A stretch of 64,000 bases of DNA from an uncultured Gammaproteobacteria bacterium (GTDB lineage: Bacteria; Patescibacteriota; Microgenomatia; Levybacterales; GWA1-39-11): the NCBI GenBank assembly GCA_964640435.1, contig CAZXFJ010000002.1, positions 4,175 to 68,174 on the forward strand, given 5' to 3'. Every line of letters begins with the position of its first letter. Positions within the stretch are counted from its first letter, which is position 1. Both the position numbers and the translations under genes were made by a program. The notes below the pieces were generated by a model. The model was given only the letters and a program-made list of their open reading frames with translations. It was not told the DNA's origin and searched no databases. Below, one piece after another: positions 627 through 45,096 of this stretch.

Positions 627-635
627 TGATATAAT
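627..635 (+). promoter_or_regulatory. extended -10 (TGaTATAAT) 6 nt upstream of the ATG at 642; leaderless configuration
   Basis: TGATATAAT at 627-635, a 6-nt spacer, then ATG; no Shine-Dalgarno sequence. Confidence 0.4.
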
Positions 636-641
636 ATCTCT

Positions 642-1133
642 ATGAATACTGAAGAATATATCCGAGATGAATTGGTTTTTCATTTAACCCTTGGCCATGC
701 ACATATGCCGTTTGATGAGGCTATTCACGATTTTCCAACTTCAAAAATTAATGAAAAATTTCTCAATGAAGAATATACATTTTGGCATCTACTTGAACAC
801 ATAAGAAGAACGCAGGCAGATATCTTAAATTTTATGGTAAATCCAGATTATAAAGAGCCTGAATGGCCTAAAGATTATTGGCCAGAAAAGTCTGAAAAGG
901 CAAATCGTGTTCAGTGGGCAAAAACTATTCGGGATTTTAAGAAAGATCAGAAGGAACTAGTAAAACTTGTAAAAGATAATAAGATAGATCTGTATAAAAA
1001 AATTCCTAAAGGAACAGGGCAAACCGTATTTCGAGAAATATTTGTTGTAACAGATCATAATGCATATCACATCGGAGAATTTGCAATTATGAGACAAGCG
1101 CTCAATGCATGGGGAAAAAGCCACAAGAGTTAA
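642..1133 (+). CDS. DinB/YfiT-like (DinB_2) metal-dependent hydrolase-like protein
   Basis: 163 aa. His-rich four-helix-bundle signature: HLTLGHAH, WHLLEHIRRTQ and DHNAYHIGE. Confidence 0.6.
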   Translation: MNTEEYIRDELVFHLTLGHAHMPFDEAIHDFPTSKINEKFLNEEYTFWHLLEHIRRTQADILNFMVNPDYKEPEWPKDYWPEKSEKANRVQWAKTIRDFKKDQKELVKLVKDNKIDLYKKIPKGTGQTVFREIFVVTDHNAYHIGEFAIMRQALNAWGKSHKS

Positions 1134-1669
1134 ATAAAACTGTGAATTGGAGAATAGTAGAGAATAATTCCTAAAATACTTGCCAGGATAAAGCTTAAAA
1201 ACCCATTAATTTTTATAATTTTCGCCATAACTATCATTGAAATAAACACTATCCACGGAATTCCACTTATTAACACACTTTGGCCAATTGATGCAGTTGC
1301 TGAAAAAATAAGTCCAATTGATACAACAGTAATTCCTTTTATTAAATGATTTACAATCTCAACATCTTTAAATTTTTGATAGCCTTTCATCATTGGGATC
1401 ATTAATAATCCAGGAATAATAATAGAAATAGATGAAAGAACTGCTCCAAATGGTCCAAAAAGAAAATATCCAATTGCAGCAATATACAGGTTAACTTGTC
1501 CGGGTGTGACACGTGCTATTGCATATGCGTAAAGTAATTGGTCTTGAGTTATTGCATGATGATTTACAACCAGTGCTTGTTGTAGAAGAGGCAACATTAC
1601 GGGACCATTACCAAATGTGATAATGGTATCAAACATTAATGTCCAAAGAAGATCAATAAGGGAGATCAT
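1130..1669 (-). CDS. chrA: chromate transporter, short-chain ChrA half (CHR family)
   Basis: 179 aa, about 5 TM. Matches the ChrA-domain pattern (FGNGPVMLPLL, PGQVNLYIAAIGYFLFGP). Paired with the adjacent second half, as in SCHR pairs. Confidence 0.7.
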   Translation of the reverse strand: MISLIDLLWTLMFDTIITFGNGPVMLPLLQQALVVNHHAITQDQLLYAYAIARVTPGQVNLYIAAIGYFLFGPFGAVLSSISIIIPGLLMIPMMKGYQKFKDVEIVNHLIKGITVVSIGLIFSATASIGQSVLISGIPWIVFISMIVMAKIIKINGFLSFILASILGIILYYSPIHSFI

Positions 1670-2216
1670 GGCCCCCCTTTACTGTTGAGAAAATTATTAT
1701 TCCTAAAACTCCTCCAGCAATAATAACGAGTGCTACATTAATACTTAATACAAATGTAGCTATAAATGCAGCTGTTGCAAACGCAATTAAAAGAGGAGAG
1801 TGAAAAACATCTTTTCCCATGCTTATCGCTGAAATAAAAATAAGACCAACTGCAGCAGGTAGTACTGAATAATTAATAAGATCAAAGAAATGACTATCTT
1901 TAAGAACTGTATAGAATGCAGCCAAAATTAATGTTAAAGTAAAACCTGGTAACATTACTCCTAAAAGCGCTACTAGAATTCCAAAAAGGTTTTTATATTT
2001 GTATCCAATTCCAATAGCAAGGGCTGTGACCGTGCCACTTGGGACAATCCTTCCAACAGCAAAAAGAGACATAAATTCACTACGACTCATAAATTTATGT
2101 TTTTGAACGAGCTCATGCTCCATTGCAAAGACAACTGCAAGTCCTCCACCTAGGGCAAAACCAGCTTTCAAGAAAATAAAAAATAACTGCCTATATGTCA
2201 TTTCTTTTTTTGTCAT
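1653..2216 (-). CDS. chrA: chromate transporter, short-chain ChrA half (CHR family)
   Basis: ChrA N-domain pattern: FLKAGFALGGGLAVVFAMEHELV and GRIVPSGTVTAL. The ATG at 2216 (MTKKEM...) is preferred over the GTG at 2252 used by the ORF track. Overlaps its partner by 17 nt. Confidence 0.7.
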   Translation of the reverse strand: MTKKEMTYRQLFFIFLKAGFALGGGLAVVFAMEHELVQKHKFMSRSEFMSLFAVGRIVPSGTVTALAIGIGYKYKNLFGILVALLGVMLPGFTLTLILAAFYTVLKDSHFFDLINYSVLPAAVGLIFISAISMGKDVFHSPLLIAFATAAFIATFVLSINVALVIIAGGVLGIIIFSTVKGGHDLPY

Positions 2217-2282
2217 AGGAAAGACCAGGAAGAAGTAACGGGGATGTCTCACTCACAGGTCCAGTATATTATACAAAAAATT

Positions 2283-2291
2283 TGGTAAAAT
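2283..2291 (+). promoter_or_regulatory. extended -10 (TGgTAAAAT) 6 nt upstream of the ATG at 2298; leaderless configuration
   Basis: TGGTAAAAT at 2283-2291, then ttagag, then ATG. Confidence 0.35.
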
Positions 2292-2297
2292 TTAGAG

Positions 2298-3587
2298 ATG
2301 AATAATCCAGAGGTACCAACAGGACGAAGACCCCATGTGGTTGAGCTTCGATATTCTGAAGAGGGGTTAGATACAGAGCAGAAAAAACTTCTTGGAATAT
2401 ATAAGGATGTTGTTGTTGAAACTGGAAATGTTTGGGATTCCTTACTAAAAATTGGTGAGCAACCAGTAGGTTTTTCTCGTGATGAGTTAGCAGGTGTTAC
2501 TAAGCGAAACCCAGGATACAATTTTATATTTGAAGTTGATCAAGGTTCTCTTGGGGCAATGCCATACGAGCTTTTGCTCGCAAAACCTCTTGCTCCAATT
2601 TTGTCATCACTCTCTGAAGCAATTGAGGTGACAAGTGATCCTGATGAAAAAAGATATCTTGAGGGCACAATTGGCGCATTGAGAGACGGACAATATGAAG
2701 ATGGAATGCGTGAATGGATAAATAATAACCCAAAAATTGGACTTACTGTTGGGTATTTTCAATATAAAGATCGGTCTCGTACTGAACATGCTTTATCTGC
2801 ATGGGTTGGAATAAAAGATGATGATATGACTGAGTTAGCAACAAGAATTGGAGACATCTACAAAAGAACATATGGATCTAATGTTAAGGTTGTTAATCGC
2901 GCCGAAAGAAGTGTAATTTTTGGGGGAGACATAGCAGATGCCCCAACAATTCCTGGTGCTGGCGCATTACCAAACGAACAAGGATGGAGAGAAAGACATG
3001 GAACCAAGATAACATTCTTTTTAAATTCAACTGAAAAGACAAATGAGGAAAAGCTTCCAATAACTCGCTCAATATGGGATGAGGCCTCAGAATATACTGA
3101 CGACGAATTTAAGACACTCGGTTTTAAATTGCTTGCAGCGCATGAGAATATGCATCCTGCTACAAGGCATGACAATGACGAGGCAAGACTTACAAACAAC
3201 TTCACGTATATTAGTGAAACACTATGTGATGTTTTAGCGCAAAAATTATCCGGAGATTTAATTGACCAATTAATTTCTAAAAAAGAATTGAGAGCTGCAA
3301 TTCCATCCATTGTATCAACAGCGTTGACACTAAGACGGAAAGGAATGCCACTTAACTACCCGCACATGCAAGGATGGGCAACAATTACAAATTACATGAT
3401 TGAAAATGGCGGAGTAGAAATTGATAATCGAAAGTTAAAGCTAGGTTCAGACGAGCAAATGAGAAGTGCAATTCTTGGCTTAACAGAAAGACTCGAAGAT
3501 ATTATAAGACGCGGAAACAATGAAGACGCAAAAACATTACTTGAAGCTTATGGTGATGCGAGAGTTTTTGATAAGTTAATTAATTAA
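2298..3587 (+). CDS. hypothetical soluble protein with HExxH zinc-metallopeptidase-like motif (family unassigned)
   Basis: 429 aa with no TM. HENMH at residues ~282-286 (nt 3141-3155) and a Glu ~23 residues downstream (ISETL) give gluzincin-like spacing. No match to any peptidase family I can name with confidence. Confidence 0.4.
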   Translation: MNNPEVPTGRRPHVVELRYSEEGLDTEQKKLLGIYKDVVVETGNVWDSLLKIGEQPVGFSRDELAGVTKRNPGYNFIFEVDQGSLGAMPYELLLAKPLAPILSSLSEAIEVTSDPDEKRYLEGTIGALRDGQYEDGMREWINNNPKIGLTVGYFQYKDRSRTEHALSAWVGIKDDDMTELATRIGDIYKRTYGSNVKVVNRAERSVIFGGDIADAPTIPGAGALPNEQGWRERHGTKITFFLNSTEKTNEEKLPITRSIWDEASEYTDDEFKTLGFKLLAAHENMHPATRHDNDEARLTNNFTYISETLCDVLAQKLSGDLIDQLISKKELRAAIPSIVSTALTLRRKGMPLNYPHMQGWATITNYMIENGGVEIDNRKLKLGSDEQMRSAILGLTERLEDIIRRGNNEDAKTLLEAYGDARVFDKLIN

Positions 3588-4146
3588 CTTCGAGAAGATT
3601 CCCGTTGTCTTGAATTTCATATTTTTCTATAACTTCAATATTCGGCTCCATCGACATCGGTGCATTTTCTGGCCTATCCATATAGAAAAGCATGACAAGT
3701 CCATTTTTATATTTAGCTGAATCCTCTATGTTTAGAGATTTTATTTTAATTCTGTCTCCGAGTGGAATGAGCTGTGAATAAACAACTTTCCCATCGATTT
3801 TGGATGCAGTAACTAATGAATAAAAGGTTCCTGATCCACCGGGCGAATCAACAATTATAGCAGCTGCATGATTCCCATCAGGACTTGCTGTTGCATTCAT
3901 AATTAGAGCTACATGTTGCTTGTTGGAACTTTCATAAGCACCCCTTCTAAATGTTATTGGTTCTTCATTAATATTTATTGTAAAGTTATCAAAGCCAAAT
4001 GGTTTTTTCTGCATTGTTTGAATATCTGTTGGTGTTGGAGCAAATGAGTGTTTATGGGTTACAAAGTAACCAATAAGGACAAGTATTAGGAAGGTAATAA
4101 TGATCCAAAAGATTTTCATTTTCTTTTTATTTGTACTTTTTGCCAT
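3580..4146 (-). CDS. hypothetical membrane-anchored protein (N-terminal TM, extracytoplasmic domain)
   Basis: 188 aa. Lys-rich N-terminus followed by a single hydrophobic helix (IFWIIITFLILVLIGYFV). Converges on, and overlaps, the end of the upstream gene. Confidence 0.5.
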   Translation of the reverse strand: MAKSTNKKKMKIFWIIITFLILVLIGYFVTHKHSFAPTPTDIQTMQKKPFGFDNFTININEEPITFRRGAYESSNKQHVALIMNATASPDGNHAAAIIVDSPGGSGTFYSLVTASKIDGKVVYSQLIPLGDRIKIKSLNIEDSAKYKNGLVMLFYMDRPENAPMSMEPNIEVIEKYEIQDNGNLLEVN

Positions 4147-4185
4147 AGTATAAGTATCCTTTTAATTTCGTCTTTTTTCAAGTAT

Positions 4186-4191
4186 TATAAT
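4186..4191 (+). promoter_or_regulatory. -10 box TATAAT 7 nt upstream of the ATG at 4199; leaderless configuration
   Basis: TATAAT at 4186-4191, then ctttgaa, then ATG. Confidence 0.35.
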
Positions 4192-4198
4192 CTTTGAA

Positions 4199-4744
4199 AT
4201 GAGCAAGACTTCAGACCTTCAAAAGATTGCAGTTGATATTGAAAAATGTGAAATTTGTAAGAAAAATAAACATGGGAAAGCTGTCGTTGGTGAGGGAAAT
4301 CCAGATGCTGATGTAATATTTATAGGGGAAGCACCTGGTAGAAACGAAGCCTTAACAGGAAGACCTTTTATAGGAAGATCTGGAAGGTTGCTACGCGAAG
4401 CGATAACAGGTTTGGGATTGAAAGAAGAAGATGTATATATAACAAGTCCTGTTAAGTATCTTCCGGATTATGTTACACCTACAGATGAAGATATAGCCCA
4501 TGGAATGACCCATCTTTCAAAGCAAATTGAGGTTATTGATCCAAAAGTTTTAGTTCTGCTTGGTAGAGTTGCGGTTCGTGGAGTGCTCGGCGACAAAGTT
4601 ATGATTAGCAAGCTTCACGGGGAGTTTGTAAATAAAAATGGACGTACATACTTCATTTCGTATCATCCAGCTGCAGCAATTCGTTTTCAAAAGTTCAGGA
4701 AAGTCTTCTTAGATGATTTTCAAAAAATTAAGGAAGTTTTATGA
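4199..4744 (+). CDS. uracil-DNA glycosylase, family 4 (SPO1 DNA-polymerase-related type)
   Basis: GEGNPDADVIFIGEAPGRNE, PFIGRSGRLL and YHPAAAIR match the family-4 UDG motifs. Only the N-terminal CxxC pair of the usual Fe-S cysteines is evident by eye. Confidence 0.85.
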   Translation: MSKTSDLQKIAVDIEKCEICKKNKHGKAVVGEGNPDADVIFIGEAPGRNEALTGRPFIGRSGRLLREAITGLGLKEEDVYITSPVKYLPDYVTPTDEDIAHGMTHLSKQIEVIDPKVLVLLGRVAVRGVLGDKVMISKLHGEFVNKNGRTYFISYHPAAAIRFQKFRKVFLDDFQKIKEVL

Positions 4745-5802
4745 CATTTCAAGATATTCTTTCTCAAAGACTCGTAAACGAACAGCTTATTAAGACTAAA
4801 TTTAAAACAGCCCGAGATCTTGTCTCATGGTTCGGAGCAGTTCAGTCACAGGATTATCTAGGTGCAAAATGGGCTCTGGGACAACGACTTAACATAAAAG
4901 ATTCTGACATCGAAAAAGAATTTAATGATGGTCGAATCATAAGAACTCATGTAATGCGTCCTACTTGGCATTTTGTGGCTCCGGAGGATATTCTGTGGAT
5001 GCAAGAACTGACCTCTCCGCGTGTTAATAAGATAATGAATTATTACAACAAAAAACTGGGTTTAGATACTGAATTATTTAAAAAGACTAATAAACTTATT
5101 GAAAAAGTCCTAGCTGAAGGAAATTATTTAACAAAAATTGAGATAAAAGATCTCCTTGATAAAGAAAAAATACATACAAATACGCAAACACTTTCTCATG
5201 TTATTTCTACTGCTGAGCTTGAGGGAATTATTTGTAGTGGTCCACGTAAAGGAAATAAATTTACCTATGCATTAATTTCAGATAGGGCACCAAAGGCAAA
5301 AAAACTACCAAGAGAAGATGCGTTAAAAGAACTAGTTAAGCGATATTTTCAGAGTCATGGACCTGCAACGATAAGAGATTTTGTTTGGTGGTCAGGATTA
5401 ACCGTTCTTGATGCAAAGCTCGGAATAGAAGCGAATAAATTAAAATCAGAAACTTTGAAGGGTAAAACTTACTGGTTTTTTGAAATTGGAAAGGTAAATA
5501 TTCCATCTCCGGATTTATATTTACTTCCTAATTATGATGAATTCACTATAGCATATCAGGACCGTGATCCATTTTTAAAACCCGAAGCAATAGAGTATTT
5601 TAAAACACAAGGAAATGCTGCATTTTGGAATGCAGTTATATATAAAGGGGAAATTGCAGGTAAGTGGAAGAAGACAACAGGTAAAAATATATTAAACTTA
5701 CAAGTTAAATTATTTGATGAAGCTAAAAATGAGACAAATAAGCTTGAAAAGGAGATAGTAAAATTAGGAGATTTTTTTGAAGTTGAAATTAAATTTAACT
5801 AG
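4741..5802 (+). CDS. AlkZ/YcaQ-like winged-helix DNA glycosylase (HTH_42 family)
   Basis: 353 aa. N-terminal RLVNEQL and AVQSQDYLGAKWALGQRL carry a Q-x-Q catalytic-type motif. HVMRPTWHFV block. ATGA overlap with the UDG gene and an AGGAAG Shine-Dalgarno sequence upstream. Confidence 0.7.
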   Translation: MTFQDILSQRLVNEQLIKTKFKTARDLVSWFGAVQSQDYLGAKWALGQRLNIKDSDIEKEFNDGRIIRTHVMRPTWHFVAPEDILWMQELTSPRVNKIMNYYNKKLGLDTELFKKTNKLIEKVLAEGNYLTKIEIKDLLDKEKIHTNTQTLSHVISTAELEGIICSGPRKGNKFTYALISDRAPKAKKLPREDALKELVKRYFQSHGPATIRDFVWWSGLTVLDAKLGIEANKLKSETLKGKTYWFFEIGKVNIPSPDLYLLPNYDEFTIAYQDRDPFLKPEAIEYFKTQGNAAFWNAVIYKGEIAGKWKKTTGKNILNLQVKLFDEAKNETNKLEKEIVKLGDFFEVEIKFN

Positions 5803-6946
5803 TGAATCCGATTTCCTTCATGACTCTTTGTGCGCGGTTTAACAACTCTTCTCGATTATTTCCAAAATAAGTTATATGTCCTCTTTTTCTGGGAGGAAAT
5901 TGTTCGCGAGGCCCTTTATGGTACCAATGTACATATCCCCCTTCTGACTCGATGTATTCTTTATCTTCCTCGCTCATCTCTTTATAATCAACGCCTCCAT
6001 TAAGGTTATGCATTAATACTATCTCTCCTGGTTTAGCAACCTCCGCCCTTTCGGGCAAGTGGAGTCCTGCTGCAATTGAGACCATTGCATCAAATTGAGA
6101 AAAATTTGTTCCTTCAATGCTCCAGTGACCTGTATTATGAGTGCGTCCCGCGATTTCATTAATTCGTAACCCAAGGTTTGTATCAAAAATTTCAACTCCA
6201 TATAAACCTTCGCCTTCGAGTACATTAAGTAGCTTATTGCACATTTCAGCTATTTCTTTTTCAAGTTTTTCACCAGCTCCAGAGGGATAAAATGTATGTT
6301 CAAGCATTCCATTCTTATGAACTGATTCAACAGTTGGAAATATAATTCTTCCGCCATACGCATCTTTTCCAATAATTGTGGCGAGCTCTCGAATAAGGGG
6401 TAATCGTCTTTCAACAACCATATCTTGACCTTCAAATTCCTTCCATGCTTCATTTAGATCCTCTAGCGTTGTAACGTGTTTATTTCCGCGTCCATCGAAA
6501 CCACCTTCTGCGGTTTTGACTATCACATCATGATCGAAAACACTATAAGCATCTCTGAGTTCTTTACGACTTATTGCTGGTAGCCAAGGGGCAATTGGTA
6601 TTCCGGCTTCTCTTAATAATTCCTTTTGAGCAATTCTATTCTGGATTATTTTTGTATATTTAGGATTTGGAATTATTGGAATACCTCTTTCATCAAGCTC
6701 AACTAATCCATCAGTATTTATATGGTCGGTATCAAGATTTATAGATCTAACGTTCCCGCCAAATGATATTTGATCTGATTTATTGTTAGGGTCTCCTTCA
6801 AATATATCGGAGGCGAATGATGCTGGACTACCCTTTTTTCCTAAAACCAAAACGGGAATATTTCTGTCGTTTGCTGCCTGTGCAGTCATCAATGCAAGTT
6901 GTCCATCTGAAGCGATGCCTATTGGTTTTTCGGACTCTAAAGTCAT
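5795..6946 (-). CDS. purK: N5-carboxyaminoimidazole ribonucleotide synthase (PurK, ATP-grasp)
   Basis: TAEGGFDGRGN, RINEIAGRTHNTGHWSIEGTNFSQF and HWYHK...RKRGH align block-for-block with E. coli PurK. Confidence 0.85.
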   Translation of the reverse strand: MTLESEKPIGIASDGQLALMTAQAANDRNIPVLVLGKKGSPASFASDIFEGDPNNKSDQISFGGNVRSINLDTDHINTDGLVELDERGIPIIPNPKYTKIIQNRIAQKELLREAGIPIAPWLPAISRKELRDAYSVFDHDVIVKTAEGGFDGRGNKHVTTLEDLNEAWKEFEGQDMVVERRLPLIRELATIIGKDAYGGRIIFPTVESVHKNGMLEHTFYPSGAGEKLEKEIAEMCNKLLNVLEGEGLYGVEIFDTNLGLRINEIAGRTHNTGHWSIEGTNFSQFDAMVSIAAGLHLPERAEVAKPGEIVLMHNLNGGVDYKEMSEEDKEYIESEGGYVHWYHKGPREQFPPRKRGHITYFGNNREELLNRAQRVMKEIGFTS

Positions 6947-6965
6947 GAAGAAATAGTATCAGAAT

Positions 6966-7862
6966 TTATTGCATTGTCAATCTCTTTTGATTCTGTTTCC
7001 AATTGTTTTTGCATGAATCATCACAGAAGGCATATCGGGTTTCACTATCCAGACAATTATCGCAGCAAATATAATGTTTGTGGCATACATCATACATGCA
7101 ATTTACATATGATTCAGATGGTATTCCGCAAAAAGTGCATCTTCCAACGATCTCATGCTCAGGTGAATCAGTGTTAAACCCAATAGTTAAACGTTTATCA
7201 AATACATAAAGTTTCCCTTTAAAGTATTTATTTGGATACCTTTCCATAAATGTTTGTATGCCATCTTTAAGTTGGTATACGTCTTTGAAACCATTTTCAA
7301 CTAAAAAGCCTGATGCTTTTTCGCATCTAACTCCACCTGTGCAAACCGTAACTACAGTTTTTCCCTTTAAATGTGCTAAGCGTGGTAGAACTTCTTTAAG
7401 CTGAAAGAAATTTTTCATTCCCGAAGGAACAAATCCATCAAAATATCCTGACGCATATTCGTAATCATTTCTCATATCAACAATATAGAATTCTTTTTTA
7501 GACTCAAACCAATCAAATAGTTCGTCAGCTGTAAGATATTTTCCTGTAACCTTTGTTGGATTCGTATCAACTTTAGCAGTAACAATTTCAGGACGAACTC
7601 TTACACGAAGCTCAGGAAATGATTTCCCATCACTTTCGCTTCTTTTGTAATTAATCTTAGTAAGAAGAGGATTTTTTTCTGTTTCCCGAATATATTCTTC
7701 TGTTGCTTCAACTGTTCCTTCAAGAGTTCCATTGATTCCTTCATGCGCAACGATAATTCTTCCCATAAGGCCAAGCCTTTCGCAAAGTGCTTTTTGTTCA
7801 TCACGAACTTTAGCTGGATTATCAATATTCACATACTTGTAATAAAGTAAAACTTGAAACAT
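6966..7862 (-). CDS. trhO: tRNA uridine(34) hydroxylase TrhO (YceA/UPF0176, rhodanese domain)
   Basis: LYYKY...AHEGINGT N-terminus, rhodanese active-site CTGGVRCEKAS, and a C-terminal Cys-rich tail, as in YceA. Confidence 0.85.
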   Translation of the reverse strand: MFQVLLYYKYVNIDNPAKVRDEQKALCERLGLMGRIIVAHEGINGTLEGTVEATEEYIRETEKNPLLTKINYKRSESDGKSFPELRVRVRPEIVTAKVDTNPTKVTGKYLTADELFDWFESKKEFYIVDMRNDYEYASGYFDGFVPSGMKNFFQLKEVLPRLAHLKGKTVVTVCTGGVRCEKASGFLVENGFKDVYQLKDGIQTFMERYPNKYFKGKLYVFDKRLTIGFNTDSPEHEIVGRCTFCGIPSESYVNCMYDVCHKHYICCDNCLDSETRYAFCDDSCKNNWKQNQKRLTMQ

Positions 7863-7870
7863 AGAGTTTG

Positions 7871-7879
7871 ATTATACCA
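7871..7879 (-). promoter_or_regulatory. extended -10 (TGgTATAAT on minus strand) 8 nt upstream of the trhO ATG; leaderless configuration
   Basis: Plus-strand ATTATACCA at 7871-7879 reverse-complements to TGGTATAAT. An 8-nt spacer lies between it and the ATG complement at 7860-7862. Confidence 0.4.
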
Positions 7880-7921
7880 AATAGGTTCAATCTTGAATAT
7901 TGAATTAGCAAATTAGCTCGT

Positions 7922-7927
7922 TATAAT
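7922..7927 (+). promoter_or_regulatory. -10 box TATAAT 7 nt upstream of the purB ATG; leaderless configuration
   Basis: TATAAT at 7922-7927, then agcaatt, then the ATG at 7935. Confidence 0.35.
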
Positions 7928-7934
7928 AGCAATT

Positions 7935-9422: not shown

Positions 9423-9451
9423 TTTCAAAACTAGTAAAACTCCTGTATAAT
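9423..9451 (+). promoter_or_regulatory. candidate promoter (TTTCAA-N17-TATAAT) ending 8 nt before the ATG at 9460; head of the glycosylation super-operon
   Basis: -35-like TTTCAA at 9423-9428. TATAAT at 9446-9451. No Shine-Dalgarno sequence. Confidence 0.35.
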
Positions 9452-9459
9452 CAATCCAT

Positions 9460-11357: not shown

Positions 11358-11363
11358 TATAAT
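11358..11363 (+). promoter_or_regulatory. -10 box TATAAT 6 nt upstream of the ATG at 11370 (internal promoter, leaderless configuration)
   Basis: TATAAT at 11358-11363, then ttaatt, then ATG. Confidence 0.35.
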
Positions 11364-11369
11364 TTAATT

Positions 11370-32453: not shown

Positions 32454-32467
32454 AAAACTTATTTTAT

Positions 32468-32473
32468 TATAAT
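32468..32473 (+). promoter_or_regulatory. -10-like TATAAT 15 nt upstream of the ATG at 32489
   Basis: TATAAT at 32468-32473 in an AT-rich spacer. Confidence 0.25.
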
Positions 32474-32488
32474 AATCGATAACAAAAA

Positions 32489-36075: not shown

Positions 36076-36084
36076 TGTTATAAT
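36076..36084 (+). promoter_or_regulatory. extended -10 (TGtTATAAT) 6 nt upstream of the ATG at 36091; leaderless configuration
   Basis: TGTTATAAT at 36076-36084, then catcta, then ATG. Confidence 0.4.
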
Positions 36085-36090
36085 CATCTA

Positions 36091-38097
36091 ATGCGTTTTC
36101 GAAGTCTACTCTTTGGTGCGTTTTTTCTATTATTATCGGCAAGTAATGTTTTTGCTGATAACTCCTACATAACAATCGTAAATCCTGTAAGAATTTCAGA
36201 ATATACGAAAGATATAGTAGTCAACCTTAAGACCCAATACGAAGAATTAAATAAAAGAGAACTTCCAGCAACTTGGTTACTGACCTATGAAGTAATTACA
36301 AAAAAAGAAGCAGTTGAAGCAATAAAAAAATTTAATAAAAGACAAGAAGTAGGGGTATTTCTTGAAATAACTCCAGAAATATCTAAGGCTTCTGGGGTTT
36401 CTTACAATGAAACTAATGCTTGGCATAGGGCAACCTCAATTTTTTTATCAGGTTACACACAAAAAGATAGAAGAAAACTGATTGACACATTTTTTTCAGC
36501 ATTCAAAGATAAATTTGGATATTATCCAAAGTCGGTAGGATCCTGGTGGACAGATGCATATTCGCTTTCCTACATGAAAGAAAAATACAATATTACAGGA
36601 ACGCTTGGAGTGTCTGATCAGTATGATTTAGATGGGTATCAGGTTTGGGGTACATTTTGGAGTGTACCATATTACCCATCGAAGGTTAATGCAGGTATGC
36701 CAGCTCAAGCGGCTGAAGATAAAATAAATGTTGTCACCTTTAGATGGGCTGCAAGAGATCCTATTAATGGATACGCGAGCCCTTCTGATAAAGAAGCAAG
36801 TCTATATAGTACACAAGATTATTCTTCATTTGGTTTAGTTAATGATTATTACAATTATCTTATTGAGACATTTTCAATGCAAAACGAATTTAATAAATTT
36901 GGACAAATAACTCTTGGTCTTGAGGCAGATTATGCACCAGAAACATATACATCACAATTCGCAGAGTGGCTAGATATTGTTAAGAATAGAGAAGCTGAAG
37001 GGGAAAAAATAACAAACATGTCAGAGTTCTCTGATTGGTATATTAATGAGTTTAAATCTATTTCCCCACAGCAAATCATAGTATCGGATGATTATTTAGG
37101 GACAGGAAAGAAAGTGTATTGGATAAATAACTCCAGGTATAGAGTGGGTCTAGTCGATGACGGAAAAAATACAGCAATGATTGATTTTCGGACCTATCCT
37201 GAAAATTTTATTGAGCCATTTTATGTTGCACCAAACAAGCAATACAATTTATCTATAAACCTTCCATATGTAATTGATTCGCATATAAACAAAAAAAGTT
37301 CTTGGATTCTATCAAGCGAAAGTATTGAATCAGTTGAAAGCACTTTAGGAAATTTATCTGTGAAGTTAAAAAAAGGAAGCTTATTATTCTCTCCTAATTC
37401 AATTACAGTTCGTGATATTAAAATTCCTATTGCAATTGGCAAGAGCACTTATTTAAAAGTTGAAAAAAATGAAAATCATCAAATTATTTATCCAATCAAA
37501 AACGACCCGATCAGTCCAGATGGAATACTTTATAGCGAATACTCTTTAAGACTCCCTTTTACCATAGAAAGAAGAATAGACCCTATAAAAGTGTTTATTT
37601 ATCCGACTGCAATTATTTTAATCTGCATAATTTCAACCCTATTAATTATTAGATTTAAAAGAAGAGGAGTATTAATTTTGTTTTCATTAGCCATAATTTT
37701 AGTAATATTTTTCGTTGTTCGTGGACAAGCAAAATATTACATAAGTCAAACAGAAATGGATGCGTTATCCGTGCTGAGTGATTTGCCTCAGGGGAGAGTA
37801 CTCGTTTATGAGAAGGATTGTTTAAAATGTACATTTCAAACAATAAGGCCAGCAGCAGCCGCAGGAAGAAAGGGATACGTTGAAAAGTACGGTAAGCAAA
37901 AAATGTTACTTGATCTAAATTTCCAAATAGCTGCAAGTAGTAAGCTTGGCGCAGAGATGTTAAAAGAAAGAAAAGTTAAATATATTTACTTAAGTAAATA
38001 TGAAGACTATATTGAAACACTTCCGTATTTGCCTCAAGATTTAGGCTTAAAGCGAGTATATGAAAATGCTAACGCTCAAATTTGGGAAGTGTTGTAG
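36091..38097 (+). CDS. exported/membrane-anchored hypothetical protein (signal peptide, large extracytoplasmic domain, two C-proximal TM helices, short cytoplasmic tail domain)
   Basis: 668 aa. Signal-peptide-like N-terminus (MRFRSLLFGAFFLLLSASNVFA). TM helices near residues 510-560. Inserted between GT39-like paralogs. Confidence 0.5.
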   Translation: MRFRSLLFGAFFLLLSASNVFADNSYITIVNPVRISEYTKDIVVNLKTQYEELNKRELPATWLLTYEVITKKEAVEAIKKFNKRQEVGVFLEITPEISKASGVSYNETNAWHRATSIFLSGYTQKDRRKLIDTFFSAFKDKFGYYPKSVGSWWTDAYSLSYMKEKYNITGTLGVSDQYDLDGYQVWGTFWSVPYYPSKVNAGMPAQAAEDKINVVTFRWAARDPINGYASPSDKEASLYSTQDYSSFGLVNDYYNYLIETFSMQNEFNKFGQITLGLEADYAPETYTSQFAEWLDIVKNREAEGEKITNMSEFSDWYINEFKSISPQQIIVSDDYLGTGKKVYWINNSRYRVGLVDDGKNTAMIDFRTYPENFIEPFYVAPNKQYNLSINLPYVIDSHINKKSSWILSSESIESVESTLGNLSVKLKKGSLLFSPNSITVRDIKIPIAIGKSTYLKVEKNENHQIIYPIKNDPISPDGILYSEYSLRLPFTIERRIDPIKVFIYPTAIILICIISTLLIIRFKRRGVLILFSLAIILVIFFVVRGQAKYYISQTEMDALSVLSDLPQGRVLVYEKDCLKCTFQTIRPAAAAGRKGYVEKYGKQKMLLDLNFQIAASSKLGAEMLKERKVKYIYLSKYEDYIETLPYLPQDLGLKRVYENANAQIWEVL

Positions 38098-38104
38098 AAT
38101 AATA

Positions 38105-38110
38105 TATAAT
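38105..38110 (+). promoter_or_regulatory. -10 box TATAAT 8 nt upstream of the ATG at 38119; leaderless configuration
   Basis: TATAAT at 38105-38110, then cttaagaa, then ATG. Confidence 0.35.
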
Positions 38111-38118
38111 CTTAAGAA

Positions 38119-39771
38119 ATGAGCAAAAAGGTTTTATTCTCGTTACTATCTCTTATTGTCCTCCTTGCAGCATTTCTCCGTTTCTATAAAATAGGTACAA
38201 ATCCTTCTTCTCTCACCTGGGATGAGGTTGCTTGGGGTTACAATTCATACACTCTTGGGATTGATGGTAAAGATGAATTTGGAAGATTTCTTCCAATCAC
38301 ATATCTTGAATCATTCGGTGATTTTAAACCACCTGTTTATGCATATCTGGGAGTATTGCCAGTTAAGATATTTGGCTTAAACGAGTTTGCAACGAGATTT
38401 CCATCTGCTTTTTTTGGGACTTTGACAGTGTTACTAACATTCTTCTTAGTTAAGCGCATCTTTTGGCAGAAGAAAGAGGCAGAGGTTGTGGGTCTTTTAG
38501 CTGCATTTTTCCTAGCCATATCTCCATGGCATATTATGCTCTCGAGAGCTGCTTTTGAAGCAAATGTCTCCACGTTTTTTGTTGTTGCAGGAGTATTAAC
38601 ATTTCTCGCTGGGGTACAGGATAAAAAATGGTTTTTAATTCTTTCTGCGATATCTTTTACTCTTTCAATGTATACATTCAACACTGCAAGAATTGTAAGT
38701 CCGATTCTTGTTTTAATTCTTGCTTTCGCTTTTCGTGACAAGCTTCTTAAGATTAAAAAAGAAGTAATTATTGCAGCAATTGTTGGTTTAATAATAATGC
38801 TCCCTGCTATCCCATTTCTTCTTTCTCCGCAGGCAAGTCTTCGTTTTAAAGAAGTTAATATTTTTTCTGACCCTGAAGTTGTTAAGTTGGCAAATCAGCA
38901 AATTGAAAATGATAACAATGCTGTATGGTCAAAGATTCTCCACAATAGAAGAGTCCTTTATGGACTTGAGTATATAAAGCATTATTTTGATAACTTAAGC
39001 CCGAGCTTTCTATTTATAAAAGGAGATGGGAATCCAAAGTTTTCGACACAAAATGTTGGTCAAATGTATATCTTTGACATCGTATTTTTAGTTAGTGGTT
39101 TATTGCTATTAATAAGGAAACGTGATGGTAATTGGTGGCTTATACCAATATGGATATTAGTTGGAATAATTCCTGCGGCAACGGCACGAGAAACACCTCA
39201 TGCATTGAGAATTGAGACAACTTTACCCATGTTTCAAATCCTAACTGCTTATGGCGCATATTGGATAGGTAAATGGGTATTGGGTATTAGGAAAAAAATT
39301 GTTGGTGTTAAGTTAGGCCCAGCTGTAATTGGATTAGCAAGCCTATTGTTACTCTTTAATTTTGTTTACTTCTGGCATGATTTAATGGGTAATTACAATT
39401 ATCTTTATTCCTCGCAGTGGCAATATGGATACAAGGATTCAATCGATTATGTAAATGCGAACGCTGATAAGTATGATAGAGTTCAGATAACTCAGCAGTT
39501 GGGAAGACCGTACATTTACTACCTTTTCTACAATAAAACAAATCCTGAAGAATTCAGAAATACAGCAAAAATACATCGGGATTCATTTGGATTTGTAGAT
39601 ATTGAAGGATTTGGAAAATACACATTTCCTAAAGATTATCAGGTAGATAAGAAGGATGGGGAAAAGGTTTTGTATATTGCTACACCGTATCATCTCCCTG
39701 AAGGAGCAAAAATTTTAAAAACATTTAAATTGCTTAATGGAGAAGCTGTTTTTGTTGCATATACTATATAA
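38119..39771 (+). CDS. GT-C membrane glycosyltransferase, PMT_2/GT39-like, tandem paralog B
   Basis: LTWDEVAWGYNSYTL..GKDEFGRFLPI..FGDFKPPVYAYL. 550 aa. Confidence 0.75.
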   Translation: MSKKVLFSLLSLIVLLAAFLRFYKIGTNPSSLTWDEVAWGYNSYTLGIDGKDEFGRFLPITYLESFGDFKPPVYAYLGVLPVKIFGLNEFATRFPSAFFGTLTVLLTFFLVKRIFWQKKEAEVVGLLAAFFLAISPWHIMLSRAAFEANVSTFFVVAGVLTFLAGVQDKKWFLILSAISFTLSMYTFNTARIVSPILVLILAFAFRDKLLKIKKEVIIAAIVGLIIMLPAIPFLLSPQASLRFKEVNIFSDPEVVKLANQQIENDNNAVWSKILHNRRVLYGLEYIKHYFDNLSPSFLFIKGDGNPKFSTQNVGQMYIFDIVFLVSGLLLLIRKRDGNWWLIPIWILVGIIPAATARETPHALRIETTLPMFQILTAYGAYWIGKWVLGIRKKIVGVKLGPAVIGLASLLLLFNFVYFWHDLMGNYNYLYSSQWQYGYKDSIDYVNANADKYDRVQITQQLGRPYIYYLFYNKTNPEEFRNTAKIHRDSFGFVDIEGFGKYTFPKDYQVDKKDGEKVLYIATPYHLPEGAKILKTFKLLNGEAVFVAYTI

Positions 39772-39773
39772 AC

Positions 39774-41429
39774 ATGTTCAAAAATAAGAAAACACTTTGG
39801 ATAATTTTAGGACTAATTATTGCACTTGCTGCAATCTTGAGGTTGTGGCAGCTCGGTAATATCCCTCCATCTCCAGATTGGGATGAGGCGGCTTTAGGGT
39901 ATGATGCTTATTCGTTAATGACGACGGGTAAGGATGAATTCGGTAAGTTTCTACCTGTTGTATTGAGGTCTTTTGATGATTATAAGCCGGCGCTTTATGC
40001 ATATCTTGCAATACCATCTGTTGCTATTTTTGGCTTAAACACATTTGCCGTAAGGCTTCCCTCGGCTATTTCAGGAATCTTAATGGTTCTAGTTGTGTTT
40101 TATTTAATTCGTGAATTGTTTAAGGATTATAAATATAGGGATTATTTATCTCTTGCGGGAGCCTTTCTGTATGCAATTTCCCCCTGGTCAATTCAATTCT
40201 CGCGAGTCGCATTTGAGTCAAATGTGGGAGTTTTTCTAAATGCTCTAACTGTGTTGTTTTTTGTTAAAGGTTTAAAGCGCCCATGGATGTTAATGCTTTC
40301 TGCAGTCTTTGCTGCTCTTGGACCTTATGTATATCAAAGTGAAAAAGTCTTTACACCTCTTTTAGTATTAGTGCTTGTTTTAATTTATTGGAAGCAATTA
40401 TTTAAACTTCCAAAATTAAACATAATCATGGCCGTTATCGCTGGAATTATTGTAATTGCACCAATGGCATTTTATATATTGACGGATCAAGGAGCATTGC
40501 TTCGCGTAAAGGGTACGAGTATTTTTTCCTATCAAACAGAACTGCTTAAGGATAATACCATTAAGCTTGAGAGGGATAGAGAGGTAGGGGATAAATTAGG
40601 CTTAGTCCTTGATAATAGAAGATTAGTTTATCTTAAAACAGTTATAGGGGGTTATCTTTCTCATTTTGATCTGAATTGGTTATTTACGAGAGGTGATATA
40701 GCTCGTCACCATGCGCCTGGTATGGGTTTGCTTTACTTATTTGAACTTCCTTTGATTCTTGTCGGTATTTATAAACTTATTTTTGGAGAATTTAAATTAC
40801 AGTCGAAGTTAACAATATTTGGATGGTTTTTAATTGCTGCTATTCCTGCATCGGTAACTACAGGAGTTCCACATGCTGTTCGTACACTTAACTTTCTACC
40901 AACGTATCAAATAATTGGTGGGTTGGGTTTGGTGATAATACTAATTTGGTTATCTAGGATAAAAATGAACTTGTTCAAATATACTGCGCTTTTCATAATT
41001 GGTGTTTTTGTTTTATTCAATTTTGTTTACTATCTAAATCAATACTTTGTTCAATACAATTACTATGATTCTGAAGATTGGCAATATGGTTATGAGCAGG
41101 CTGCAAATTACACAATTGAGAATAGTCATAAGTATGACAAAATAATAGTTTCTGATAGGCAGCCTATGGATAAATCTTACATGTTTTTCTTGTTCTATTT
41201 AAAATATCCACCAGAAAAATATCAAGAGATTGGTAAGAATAGTTCTGGTAGCTTTGTATCGCATCATTCATTTGATAAATATGAGTTTAGGCCAATAGAC
41301 TGGAGTAAGGATTCATCAACTCCAAATGTTTTATATATCGGTACTCAGGATGAAATACCATCTAGAGTTTCTAAAAAAACTATAAATAACCTAGATGGTA
41401 CACCAGCAATTAGAATTGCTGGAACATGA
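39774..41429 (+). CDS. GT-C membrane glycosyltransferase, PMT_2/GT39-like, tandem paralog C
   Basis: PDWDEAALGYDAYSL..GKDEFGKFLPV..FDDYKPALYAYL. 551 aa. Confidence 0.75.
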   Translation: MFKNKKTLWIILGLIIALAAILRLWQLGNIPPSPDWDEAALGYDAYSLMTTGKDEFGKFLPVVLRSFDDYKPALYAYLAIPSVAIFGLNTFAVRLPSAISGILMVLVVFYLIRELFKDYKYRDYLSLAGAFLYAISPWSIQFSRVAFESNVGVFLNALTVLFFVKGLKRPWMLMLSAVFAALGPYVYQSEKVFTPLLVLVLVLIYWKQLFKLPKLNIIMAVIAGIIVIAPMAFYILTDQGALLRVKGTSIFSYQTELLKDNTIKLERDREVGDKLGLVLDNRRLVYLKTVIGGYLSHFDLNWLFTRGDIARHHAPGMGLLYLFELPLILVGIYKLIFGEFKLQSKLTIFGWFLIAAIPASVTTGVPHAVRTLNFLPTYQIIGGLGLVIILIWLSRIKMNLFKYTALFIIGVFVLFNFVYYLNQYFVQYNYYDSEDWQYGYEQAANYTIENSHKYDKIIVSDRQPMDKSYMFFLFYLKYPPEKYQEIGKNSSGSFVSHHSFDKYEFRPIDWSKDSSTPNVLYIGTQDEIPSRVSKKTINNLDGTPAIRIAGT

Positions 41430-41437: not shown

Positions 41438-42958
41438 ATGAAGAAAAAGAAGTTTAAGTTTTCGAATTTATTCACGCCAACACTTATAATACTTTACGTA
41501 TTAATTATCATAGGGTCCTATTTAAGACTCGAAGGTATTTTCGACAATTCTTTTGCCTTTACTTACGATGTGGGACGCGATCTAATAGCCGTTGGCGATA
41601 TAGTTACAGGACAAAAACTTTCTTTAATTGGTCCAACTTCAGGTTTACCAGGAGTATTTTATGGACCCTGGTGGTATTTAATGCTTGCTCCATTTTTTGT
41701 TTTATCTTCTGGAAATCCACAAGGAATTGCATTTTTTATGAGTTTACTGGGAATTTTATTAATCCCCTTATCATTTTATTTTGGTAAAAGACTTAATGGT
41801 GATTTTTTAGCTCTAAGCCTTGCAGGACTTGCAGCAGTTTCACCATCATTAATTTCCTTATCTTCTCAAATTTGGAGTCCTAATATCGCACCTGTCTTCG
41901 TTTTACTTTCATTTATTTTGCTCTACAAGATTTACTCCGGAAAAGATAATCCAATAATATATTTTTTACTAGGTTTTGTTACATTCTTAAATTCTGAAGC
42001 AGAAATAATATTTGGAGTTCTGTTTACTGGTGGAGTTGTTATATCAGTAATTTTAATTAAAAAATTAACATTAAAGCCAATTTCAGTTATCGCCTTTTTA
42101 CTAGGTACGGTTATTGTTATCTCACCAAAAATACTTTTTGAAGTTAAGCACAATTTCTTGATGACTCAATCATTTATAAAATATTTTCAGTCAGGTGCAG
42201 AGAAAGATATGGTGAGTGGAGGAGTTGTAGATATATTAATAAATCGATTAGACATATTTATAAATGAATTTTCATATGCTGTTGCATTTGGCAATAAGGT
42301 AGCTGGAATAATTTTACTAGTCGCCACAATTATCTCAATTATCTATTTCTATAAAAGAATATCTTCAAATGAAAAAAAATTGATAATTACCTCGACTATT
42401 ATTTTAATAGTATTTTTCGCAGGAACTCTATTTTTTGCGCACAATATTTGGCCTCATTATTTAGTTGGGCTTCCTATAATATATATATTGTTGGTTTCTA
42501 TTGCCTTAGCAAATTTGAAATTTAAACTTAAGTCTTATACGATTTCGTATATAGTTTTATTTCTTTTAATTGTTATTAATCTTAATCCTATTTCAGTTTA
42601 TCAATCATTTAGTACCAGCTGGGAAGGAAATGCGGCAGTTTATAGAAATCAGCTAAATGTAGTCGACAGTATTTATGCTCAAACTAAAAACAAAAGATTT
42701 AAATATGTTGTTTATACACCACCACTTCACGATTATACGTATAGATATCTTTTTGAATGGAGAGGAAAGAAGTATAACATGAAGCCATCTATCCAAGCAG
42801 ACACGGCATACTTTATTTTAGAGCCAGATCCAGAGGACCCATCAAGGCTTACTAGATGGCTACAAGAAAGAGCAGGAGATGGTAAAATTAAAAAAAGTAA
42901 GAAATACGATGGTGGAATCATTGTTCAAGAAAGATTTGTAGGAAATGAAAAAAACTAA
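41438..42958 (+). CDS. polytopic GT-C-like membrane protein (ArnT-like), pair member 1
   Basis: 506 aa. First-loop FTYDVGRDLIAVGDIVTGQKL...GPWWY mirrors the next ORF (FGYDQVDNAWAAKNIVADGRYPL...GPLYYY). Confidence 0.5.
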   Translation: MKKKKFKFSNLFTPTLIILYVLIIIGSYLRLEGIFDNSFAFTYDVGRDLIAVGDIVTGQKLSLIGPTSGLPGVFYGPWWYLMLAPFFVLSSGNPQGIAFFMSLLGILLIPLSFYFGKRLNGDFLALSLAGLAAVSPSLISLSSQIWSPNIAPVFVLLSFILLYKIYSGKDNPIIYFLLGFVTFLNSEAEIIFGVLFTGGVVISVILIKKLTLKPISVIAFLLGTVIVISPKILFEVKHNFLMTQSFIKYFQSGAEKDMVSGGVVDILINRLDIFINEFSYAVAFGNKVAGIILLVATIISIIYFYKRISSNEKKLIITSTIILIVFFAGTLFFAHNIWPHYLVGLPIIYILLVSIALANLKFKLKSYTISYIVLFLLIVINLNPISVYQSFSTSWEGNAAVYRNQLNVVDSIYAQTKNKRFKYVVYTPPLHDYTYRYLFEWRGKKYNMKPSIQADTAYFILEPDPEDPSRLTRWLQERAGDGKIKKSKKYDGGIIVQERFVGNEKN

Positions 42959-44273
42959 TAAAAACAAACATAAGGCTAAAAAGTTTAATTTACTTCTGTG
43001 GATTAAGAATAATAAGTTTCTAATATTGGCGTTTGCAGTTTTTTTAGTAATGCTCTTTACCAGATTTTACCAACCAGAAATTAAAAATCCTTTCGGTTAT
43101 GATCAGGTTGATAACGCATGGGCTGCAAAAAATATTGTCGCTGATGGAAGATACCCACTTGTTGGAATGGTTGCAAAAGGGAACTCAGGAATATATATAG
43201 GTCCTCTATATTATTACTTCGCTGCATTTTTCTATTTCCTTTCAGGACTTGATCCTATTGCTTCAGTAATGATTGCTGGGGTAAGCGCAATAATAAGCTT
43301 TTGGATTATTTATTTCTTTACTAAAAAACTATTTAACGAGTATGTTGCATTAATAGCAGTTGTAATAAATACATTTGCTCTACCTGCGATAATATTTGAC
43401 AGAATACAGTGGCCCGTTGATTTTATTCCTGCATTTTCTCTTGTTATATTCTACCTTTTGTATAAAGTTATTACTGGTGAGGTTAAAAAACTTTTATGGC
43501 TGGCCGTTGTAGTTGGCTTAATGTTCAATATTCATTTTACTGCAATCTTTTTTCCCTTGATAGTTCTTTTTTGCTTACCATTATTCCCTAGAACCCGGGA
43601 AACTATTAAATATATATTATTCGCAATCCCATTGTTTATTATTTTCATCATTCCGAATGCAATATATATGTTAACTTCAAAGTCTTCTGGTTCAAATATT
43701 TCTTACCTTGATAGTAACTTTCATGGTTTTCATTTACGACGAATGATGCAGCTGGTCGGGGATGCTTTTATTCAGTTCGATCCATATGTAGTATTTGACT
43801 GGCTTAAAAAAATAAAAATTTTCATCCCTCTAATTTTTGTTGTTATATATTTATGGCAAACCGCTGATAAAAATAAGTATAAATTTATTTATCTTGTTGC
43901 ACTTTTTTTTATGATACCCTGGATAGTATTTACTACTTATTCTGGAGAAATAAGCGATTACTATTTCGCAGTTAACCGCTACATTGTTCTATTTATAATT
44001 TCTTATCTTTTTTATTCTGTTGGAAAAATTAGTTTTAAAAATAAAATACTAAATGTAGTACCTAAGATATTCGTTGTATTGGTATTGGCCTATTATTGTA
44101 TATATAACTTAACGAACTTTTTACCATATAAAGATGTTGGACTTAAAAAAAGATTTGAAAATGCTCAGCCTTCTGTCGATCATAATGTTCGTATTGAATT
44201 TCAAATGGGTGTTCCAGAGTCATATATCTATTATTATTTAATGCTTAAAAAGACTGGAAAAGACGTTTATTAG
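42945..44273 (+). CDS. polytopic GT-C-like membrane protein (ArnT-like), pair member 2
   Basis: 442 aa. Paralogous N-terminal architecture to the ORF at 41438. Confidence 0.5.
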   Translation: MKKTNKNKHKAKKFNLLLWIKNNKFLILAFAVFLVMLFTRFYQPEIKNPFGYDQVDNAWAAKNIVADGRYPLVGMVAKGNSGIYIGPLYYYFAAFFYFLSGLDPIASVMIAGVSAIISFWIIYFFTKKLFNEYVALIAVVINTFALPAIIFDRIQWPVDFIPAFSLVIFYLLYKVITGEVKKLLWLAVVVGLMFNIHFTAIFFPLIVLFCLPLFPRTRETIKYILFAIPLFIIFIIPNAIYMLTSKSSGSNISYLDSNFHGFHLRRMMQLVGDAFIQFDPYVVFDWLKKIKIFIPLIFVVIYLWQTADKNKYKFIYLVALFFMIPWIVFTTYSGEISDYYFAVNRYIVLFIISYLFYSVGKISFKNKILNVVPKIFVVLVLAYYCIYNLTNFLPYKDVGLKKRFENAQPSVDHNVRIEFQMGVPESYIYYYLMLKKTGKDVY

Positions 44274-44293
44274 TCGTAAAATCAAGCAATTTG

Positions 44294-44302
44294 TGTTAGT
44301 AT
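44294..44302 (+). promoter_or_regulatory. extended -10-like (TGtTAGTAT) 5 nt upstream of the ATG at 44308
   Basis: TGTTAGTAT at 44294-44302. The spacer is slightly short. Confidence 0.3.
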
Positions 44303-44307
44303 AAATT

Positions 44308-45096
44308 ATGAAAAAACAAACTGTTTCGGTTGTTTTAGCAACCTATAATGAAGAAAAAAACTTAGCGAAATGTTTGGAGACAGTAAAAGATATCGCTGAT
44401 GAAATTGTTATAGTAGATGGAACTTCTACAGATAGAACGCGTGAAATTGCAAAAGAATTTGGAGCAAGAGTAATTAAAACCACGAATAAGCCAAATTTCC
44501 ACATAAATAAGCAGATGGGGATCGAAGCCGCAAAATGCGATTGGATCCTTCAAATGGATGCTGACGAGCATGTTTCACCAGCTCTTGCAAAGGAAATAGA
44601 AGAAAAAATTAATGATCCGAAGCTTGATTTCGACGGATACTGGATGCCTAGGAAGAACTACTTTTTAGGTCGTTTTCTTATGAAGGGTGGTCAGTATCCT
44701 GATTATACGCTAAGACTTTATAAAAATGGTAAAGGAAGGCTACCTATGAAAGATGTTCATGAGCAGGCAGTTGTTGAAGGTAAGGTTGGTTATCTTAAAG
44801 AAGCATTATTGCATTATCCCTACGAAGACTTTGCTTTTTATCTTAAAAAGTGGGATAGATATAATACATTTATAGCGGGGCAGATAAGAGACGACCTGAA
44901 ACATAAAGGAAAATTAAGAAGAGGGGTTTTTGGTGCCGAATATCTTGTTTTCAGGCCAGCACATTGGCTTCTTACAACATATGGCCGACACAAGGGCTTT
45001 ATGGATTCTTGGCAAGGGTTTACTTTTTCACTTTTTTCAGCTCTTCGATTTCCGGTTTCTTATATCAAATATTTGAAAGGTGAAGACAAGAAATGA
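44308..45096 (+). CDS. GT2 glycosyltransferase (WaaE-like subgroup)
   Basis: VSVVLATYNEEKNL...ADEIVIVDGTSTDRT and MDADE motif. 262 aa. Confidence 0.8.
   Translation: MKKQTVSVVLATYNEEKNLAKCLETVKDIADEIVIVDGTSTDRTREIAKEFGARVIKTTNKPNFHINKQMGIEAAKCDWILQMDADEHVSPALAKEIEEKINDPKLDFDGYWMPRKNYFLGRFLMKGGQYPDYTLRLYKNGKGRLPMKDVHEQAVVEGKVGYLKEALLHYPYEDFAFYLKKWDRYNTFIAGQIRDDLKHKGKLRRGVFGAEYLVFRPAHWLLTTYGRHKGFMDSWQGFTFSLFSALRFPVSYIKYLKGEDKK

Follow-up and report, generated by a model that had tools for sequence, protein, structure and literature searches.

In the 64-kb stretch of contig CAZXFJ010000002.1 analysed here (hereafter the window), -10-like hexamers recur at a nearly fixed 6–8 nt ahead of the ATG of genes that follow an intergenic gap. 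Judging from the DNA sequence, we consider it very probable that these are sigma-70 promoters placed to yield leaderless mRNAs, with both the position of the transcription start site (TSS) and the mode of translation being inferred. The promoters would be of sigma-70 type, often with an extended -10 element (TGnTATAAT) and a weak TTGaaa -35 element at 17 nt; RNA polymerase would start on the A of the ATG or within 1–2 nt of it, and the mRNA would then have neither a 5′ untranslated region (UTR) nor a Shine-Dalgarno (SD) sequence. Translation of the first cistron would be leaderless, with a ribosome carrying fMet-tRNA binding the 5′-terminal AUG, and downstream cistrons would depend on stop/start coupling or on weak AAGGA-type SD sites. 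This reading had been put forward in an initial annotation of the window, and it is favoured by position, gene class, promoter features, start codons and conservation alike.

Position, gene class and flanks of the -10 box

We fixed the definition of a -10-like hexamer beforehand: TAnnnT, differing from TATAAT at one position or none. Before the 55 window starts such hexamers occur 8, 3 and 6 times at spacers of 6, 7 and 8 nt, respectively, and 0–3 times at the other spacers between 0 and 49 nt. A hexamer at spacer 6–8 is found at 17 of 54 gene starts as compared to 39 of 2150 other ATGs on both strands (1.8%; binomial P = 6e-17), and nine of the 46 plus-strand copies of TATAAT are placed 6–8 nt before a gene start. 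As a control, the same annotation-free open reading frame (ORF) procedure was applied to Staphylococcus phage K (100 kb, 29–32% GC), where none of 95 ORFs had the hexamer at 6–8 nt and 71–79% had an SD core; for the window this procedure returned the hexamer in 16 of 58 ORFs and an SD core in 21%. Therefore, given the enrichment over other ATGs, the positional peak and the phage control, AT-richness is not the explanation. The canonical sigma-70 +1 is the seventh base after the -10 hexamer; with the modal spacer of 6 nt, that base is the A of the ATG.

The box is also associated with a particular class of gene. When genes were divided into gap genes, which are separated from their upstream neighbour by 12 nt or more (n = 19), and internal genes, which abut or overlap that neighbour (n = 35), the box was present at 12 of the former (15 of 19 including three weaker sites, at purK, 44308 and 4146 on the minus strand) and at five of the latter (Fisher P = 5e-4), in agreement with its proposed location at operon heads. 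The 13 hexamers and ATGs of the initial annotation all lie where it had placed them, with spacers of 5–8 nt; nine of these hexamers are exact TATAAT, and the rest are TAAAAT, TAGAAT, TAGTAT and TATATT. Seven had been called extended -10 elements and all seven do carry TGn, but only five fit TGnTAnAAT, as the hexamers at 44297 (TAGTAT) and 27397 on the minus strand (TATATT) depart from it. Further sites lie beyond that list, at purK (6946, minus strand), 4146 (minus strand), 39774, 51127, 52170, 53413 and 56945. All are given below, where labels such as L005 denote homologous loci of relatives described later.

627–644, plus strand: TGaTATAAT-N6-ATG of the DinB-like gene 642–1133; start matches an independent call
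2283–2300, plus strand: TGgTAAAAT-N6-ATG of gene 2298–3587; L005 ortholog TGgTAGAAT-N7-ATG; independent call agrees
4144–4181, minus strand: TTGAAA-N17-GATACT-N6-ATG of gene 3580–4146 (minus), a weaker, leaderless-type site; L005 ortholog TGgAATACT-N6-ATG; newly found
4184–4201, plus strand: TATAAT-N7-ATG of the UDG gene 4199–4744; box within the palindrome ATTATAAT (4184–4191)
6944–6980, minus strand: TTGACA-N16-TGaTACTAT-N6-ATG of purK, 5795–6946 (minus); newly found
7860–7879, minus strand: TGgTATAAT-N8-ATG of trhO, 6966–7862 (minus); box in 52 of 75 orthologs
7900–7937, plus strand: TTGAAT-N16-TATAAT-N7-ATG of purB, 7935–9422; box kept in L004, L006 and L008 orthologs
9424–9462, plus strand: TTCAAA-N16-TATAAT-N8-ATG of the GT2 gene 9460–10206
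11358–11372, plus strand: TATAAT-N6-ATG in a 25-nt gap, PMT_2 gene 11370–12920; L004 ortholog TATAAT-N6
26375–26389, plus strand: TATAAT-N6-ATG of the GT2 gene 26387–27151, exactly filling a 12-nt gap, so that the upstream TAA stop adjoins the box
27388–27405, minus strand: TGaTATATT-N6-ATG of the DUF5652 gene 27157–27390 (minus)
27436–27475, plus strand: TTGTTA-N17-(TGt)TAGAAT-N8-ATG of the GT1 gene, start 27473 rather than TTG 27455
36076–36093, plus strand: TGtTATAAT-N6-ATG in a 24-nt gap, gene 36091–38097
38082–38121, plus strand: TTGGGA-N17-TATAAT-N8-ATG in a 21-nt gap, PMT_2 gene 38119–39771
44294–44310, plus strand: TGtTAGTAT-N5-ATG of the GT2 gene 44308–45096; weakest of the 13 listed initially
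39760–39776, plus strand: TATACT-N8-ATG of gene 39774–41429, inside the end of the upstream gene; candidate internal promoter
51090–51129, plus strand: TTGATA-N18-TATTAT-N7-ATG of gene 51127–52170; candidate internal promoter
52156–52172, plus strand: TATAAT-N8-ATG of gene 52170–53429; candidate internal promoter
53398–53415, plus strand: TGcTATACT-N6-ATG of gene 53413–54192; candidate internal promoter
56933–56947, plus strand: TACAAT-N6-ATG of gene 56945–58273; candidate internal promoter

The flanks of these hexamers are promoter-like. TGn precedes 7 of the 17 start-associated hexamers, compared with 40 of the window's 860 remaining ones (P = 1e-5), and a -35 match, taken as at least 4/6 to TTGACA at 16–18 nt, accompanies 8 of 17 as compared to 111 of 860 (P = 8e-4). 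A matrix pooled from 55 sites in the window and three relatives has T at -3 in 36 sites and G at -2 in 27, with TGn in 22, and shows TTGaaa at -23 to -18, giving the 17-nt spacer of sigma-70 geometry. In addition, divergent gene pairs lie 52–82 nt apart with a box beside each ATG, a spacing into which further promoters with leaders would hardly fit.

The start codons themselves are correctly placed. Independent gene calls on identical public contigs chose the same ATG for 642, 2298, 4199, 6946 (minus), 7862 (minus), 7935, 9460 and 11370, and close PurB homologs match in length and at the N-terminus. In an alignment of 30 TrhO homologs, several of which share the start, residue 3 of the window protein is the first of the conserved core QVLLYYKY; since an in-frame TAA also lies inside the -10 box itself, the trhO start can be moved neither up nor down. 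Similarly, the box of the GT1 gene lies downstream of the alternative TTG 27455, which identifies ATG 27473 as the start. The pooled sites comprise 53 ATG and two GTG starts, those in the window being ATG throughout. Misannotation of starts was rejected on the strength of the independent calls and N-terminal conservation.

Apart from these placements, TATAAT is under-represented on both strands of the window (96 copies, where a second-order Markov model predicts 134 ± 12), a depletion consistent with selection against spurious promoters. The 8-bp palindrome ATTATAAT at 4184–4191 presents TATAAT on both strands within the 52-nt region between the divergent genes 3580–4146 (minus) and 4199–4744 (plus). 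Its minus-strand TATAAT would give a leader of about 31 nt with an AAGGA SD, besides the GATACT-N6-ATG promoter of the same gene.

Alternative readings and exceptions

The alternative that survives best, although we regard it as unlikely, is that the promoters are real but make very short leaders (1–5 nt, or about 12 nt for the class with a 19-nt spacer) that are translated by an unknown short-leader initiation mechanism. For example, spacers of 8 and 9 nt are common in the metagenome set described below (29 and 25 sites, vs 84 at spacer 6), and TATAAT stands 19 nt from the start in two window genes and 11 nt from it in two genes of L006. Against this, the modal spacer of 6 sets the canonical +1 on the A, and a discriminator of 6–8 nt is normal for sigma-70 promoters. 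A 5′ UTR of up to about 5 nt is usually counted as leaderless in Mycobacterium studies, and short leaders would be more a refinement of the leaderless explanation than its opponent. The two L006 genes, 14705 and 16973, have near-identical sequences here, TATAATAAGGTTTGCCTATG and TATAATAAAGTTTGTCTATG, each with the 11-nt spacer.

Several observations do weigh against leaderless transcription from these sites. Spacers of 8–9 nt may leave a leader of 1–2 nt, and the spacer of 5 nt at 44308 is short. Three or four of the gap genes depart from the pattern. Genes 32489 and 60056 lack an SD, and their exact TATAAT is separated from the ATG by 19 nt (32464–32491 and 60031–60058), which implies leaders of about 12 nt without a recognisable ribosome signal. 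A box is absent at 46081, and the first chrA gene is probably leadered from a TATAAT at 2268–2273 on the minus strand. A favoured TSS is expected to have a pyrimidine at -1, and this base was not significantly enriched (35/55 vs 33/64, P = 0.2). Finally, a generic sigma-70 -35/-10 scan over 60 kb found no enrichment relative to dinucleotide shuffles (66 vs 75.7, 81 vs 90.8 and 93 vs 94), so that the case depends on where the boxes lie with respect to the ATG, not on promoter-like density. In the same 60 kb, hairpins resembling intrinsic terminators were likewise unenriched over shuffles (10 vs 11.9, 9 vs 10.7 and 7 vs 9.5), which suggests that canonical terminators of the hairpin-plus-T-tract kind are not the main means of termination.

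A different proposal, which we consider improbable, is that the hexamer is not a promoter but an AT-rich non-SD translation signal, such as a ribosome standby site or enhancer, in leadered mRNAs, similar to that of GeneMarkS-2 group B genomes such as Bacteroidota. SD use is indeed low overall, with a 4-nt core in 21% of ORFs vs 71–79% in the phage control, and many internal genes are A-rich upstream without an SD. However, the group B motif precedes all genes including internal ones (PMC6028130), whereas here the box is found at 12–15 of 19 gap genes and only 5 of 35 internal genes, the contrast on which we rejected a group B non-SD ribosome-binding site (P = 5e-4). Moreover, the exact Pribnow consensus comes with TGn and with TTGaaa 17 nt upstream, neither of which has a ribosome-binding role, and intergenic regions of 52–82 nt offer little space for another promoter. 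An archaeal-type TATA box at about -26 was also rejected, there being no peak at spacers of 20–30 nt in the window or in 709 kb of metagenome loci. That the pattern arose by chance in AT-rich DNA, or is an artefact of start-codon choice, has a negligible probability in our view: the window is 33% GC and its -35/-10 pairs are no commoner than in shuffles, but the enrichment over other ATGs (P = 6e-17), the recurrence of the peak in annotation-free ORF scans of 709 kb, the absence of signal from 100 kb of 29–32% GC control and the confirmation of starts by independent calls and N-terminal conservation all speak against it.

Internal genes had initially been assigned ATGA overlaps or AGGAAG-type SD sequences. 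ATGA overlaps do occur at twelve internal genes and are consistent with translational coupling, while SD use is weaker than had been implied: a core of at least 4 nt precedes 11 of 35 non-leaderless genes vs a background of 14% (P = 0.006), a weak enrichment, and many internal genes have an A-rich upstream region and no SD. As for the SD examples given, 4731–4736 is indeed AGGAAG, but 28524–28529 reads TAGGAA and AGGAAG sits at 28525–28530. AAGGA precedes 4741, 10199 and 4146 (minus), and GGGGGG, within AAAGGGGGG, precedes the second chrA gene, whose orthologs have GGAGG in L005 and L006 and AAAGGAGG in L008. These chrA genes represent a chromate transporter split into two adjacent half-size genes with a 17-nt overlap (1130–2252, minus strand); the first, called from a GTG, probably starts at an ATG 17 codons downstream, to judge from comparison with L005.

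Host lineage, conservation and known systems

The window has a GC content of 33% and about 54 protein genes, including genes for DUF5652 and DUF5667 proteins, plus one tRNA and, by Rfam scan, no rRNA. Its long ORFs read cleanly with TGA as a stop (genetic code 11). The best named matches of PurB and TrhO are to 'Patescibacteria group bacterium' (66–70% identity) and Candidatus Levybacteria, and the two proteins are 41–42% identical to those of Roizmanbacteria and Daviesbacteria. We therefore take the host to be a member of the Candidate Phyla Radiation (CPR)/Patescibacteria, probably Microgenomates-like, with the class-level placement tentative. By PurB identity its relatives are L004/L005 (90%), L006/L007 (67%; GCA_035545675.1) and L008 (49%; GCA_964409875.1, 43% GC), and a PurB search of genome contigs gave only three distant loci, at 38–40% identity. 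Two contigs of metagenome-assembled genomes labelled 'uncultured Gammaproteobacteria', L002 (CAYOZJ010000002.1) and L003 (CAZGFG010000006.1), are 39% GC with a PurB 38% identical; -10-like hexamers lie 6–9 nt before 4 of 20 ORF starts in L002 and 2 of 19 in L003, and these contigs are either mislabelled or from another low-GC lineage with the same architecture.

The same arrangement is found at most gap genes in L004/L005, L006/L007 and L008, where the positional peak is again confined to spacers 6–8, and in orthologous upstream regions the box and ATG are kept while the flanks have diverged. For example, a 1-nt indel ahead of the UDG gene merely shifts the spacer between 7 and 6, the L005 version having spacer 6 and a gained TGt. 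Among the candidate internal promoters at 11370, 26387, 36091 and 38119, only the first could be compared with an ortholog, and its box is conserved. To look more broadly, we used a TrhO alignment to scan metagenomes, which yielded 80 loci totalling 709 kb. Their 811 ORFs of at least 100 codons have 84, 33, 29 and 25 hexamers at spacers 6, 7, 8 and 9, respectively, vs about 8–10 elsewhere, and 18% of these ORFs carry the hexamer vs a background of 3.1%. Ahead of trhO itself, the 52 boxes found among 75 orthologs lie at a distance of 5–9 nt from the closest ATG that precedes the conserved core, and TGn accompanies 38 of them. Outgroup orthologs carry a GGAGG-type SD instead (L046 and L052, at 61% GC, plus L035, L067 and L085), the signal is absent from some trhO loci, such as L028, L072, L087 and L091, and it is weaker in the sampled Daviesbacteria locus L009 and in L010. 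The trait is therefore clade-level and not uniform across the CPR.

Leaderless genes of this kind have precedents. In the GeneMarkS-2 classification, group C genomes have a Pribnow box 6–8 nt from the start of operon-first genes and are frequent in Actinobacteria and Deinococcus-Thermus (PMC6028130). The window resembles group C members such as Mycobacterium tuberculosis, Streptomyces and Deinococcus deserti, which have ATG or GTG starts and a TANNNT box 6–8 nt before operon-first genes, a box that their other genes lack; it differs from the high-GC Actinobacteria and Deinococcus in being 33% GC, code 11 and patescibacterial. The box is near the full TATAAT here, often with TGn, in contrast to the TANNNT of mycobacteria, and its share of gap genes, about 63–79% of only 19 genes, is at or above the 25–50% quoted for group C bacteria. 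The MetaGeneMark-2 preprint describes code-11 group C genomes as almost all high-GC and the low-GC ones as code-4 Mycoplasma, in which 30–60% of genes are predicted to be leaderless (10.1101/2022.07.25.500264). The low GC, the reduced genome and a promoter box at a short unimodal distance are shared with these Mycoplasma, which nevertheless belong to another phylum and use code 4 rather than code 11. Like extended -10 sigma-70 promoters in general, the sites carry an upstream TG, separated from the hexamer by one base, and a weak or partly matched -35, but that class implies no distance to the start codon by itself, and the fixed 6–8 nt is an added feature. Finally, operon-first genes without a 5′ UTR, here predicted, are also known from group D archaea, where a TATA box lies about 26 nt upstream (PMC6028130), whereas the signal here is of bacterial type, at -10.

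Leaderless expression is therefore a known strategy in bacteria, and this low-GC, code-11 patescibacterium is an unusual host for it. In the literature we searched, leaderless genes were not described for Patescibacteria/CPR, Saccharibacteria or Microgenomates; the closest published remark is that an anti-SD motif is missing from some Parcubacteria (PMC9297842), and an earlier classing of a CPR genome as group C is possible. A wider generalization is conceivable, although we lean slightly against it: leaderless expression may be the default for operon-first genes (about 65–80%) across a large, low-GC, code-11, Microgenomates-like clade sharing TrhO, a share above that of any other reported phylum, and may have co-evolved with the reduced CPR ribosome and weak SD use. 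If that were true, the CPR would be a natural system for studying 5′-AUG-dependent initiation.

The local architecture, if confirmed, would have consequences of its own. Gene starts in CPR metagenomes would need a leaderless model, as SD-based callers would misplace them, for example at TTG 27455 in place of ATG 27473. Promoters and operon boundaries of uncultured organisms could be read directly from sequence; indeed, a 12–37 nt gap with TATAAT would mark the start of a transcription unit inside what appears to be a single 55-kb operon. As genetic tools for Patescibacteria emerge, expression cassettes could adopt the compact TGnTATAAT-N6-ATG design. Confirmation would also provide a clear exception to the link of code-11 leaderless bacteria with high GC, and would point to an ancient SD-independent mode of initiation tied to a lineage with reduced ribosomes.

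Other features of the window

The apparent 55-kb operon is a single-strand run of genes (9460–63999, plus strand) that forms a glycosylation super-cluster. It encodes many GT2 and GT1/GT4 transferases, repeated paralogs of large membrane GT-C-like proteins (PMT_2, YfhO, PTPS_related and MptA_B), two Polysacc_synt flippases, an epimerase, a deacetylase and a formyltransferase, and its large proteins without a Pfam match include those of 32489–34423, 41438–42958 and 46596–49513.

Near the other end of the window, a gene for tRNA-Glu(CTC) at 511–584 on the minus strand has TTGAGA-N18-TAAAAT upstream (623–594). Its -10 box ends 9 nt before the mature 5′ end, so that the precursor leader would be about 2–3 nt. 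The unannotated ORF 88–558 (plus strand), which overlaps this tRNA gene and has neither a Pfam match nor a start signal, is doubtful, and the tRNA-Glu gene is the exact breakpoint of the public contigs L011 and L012.

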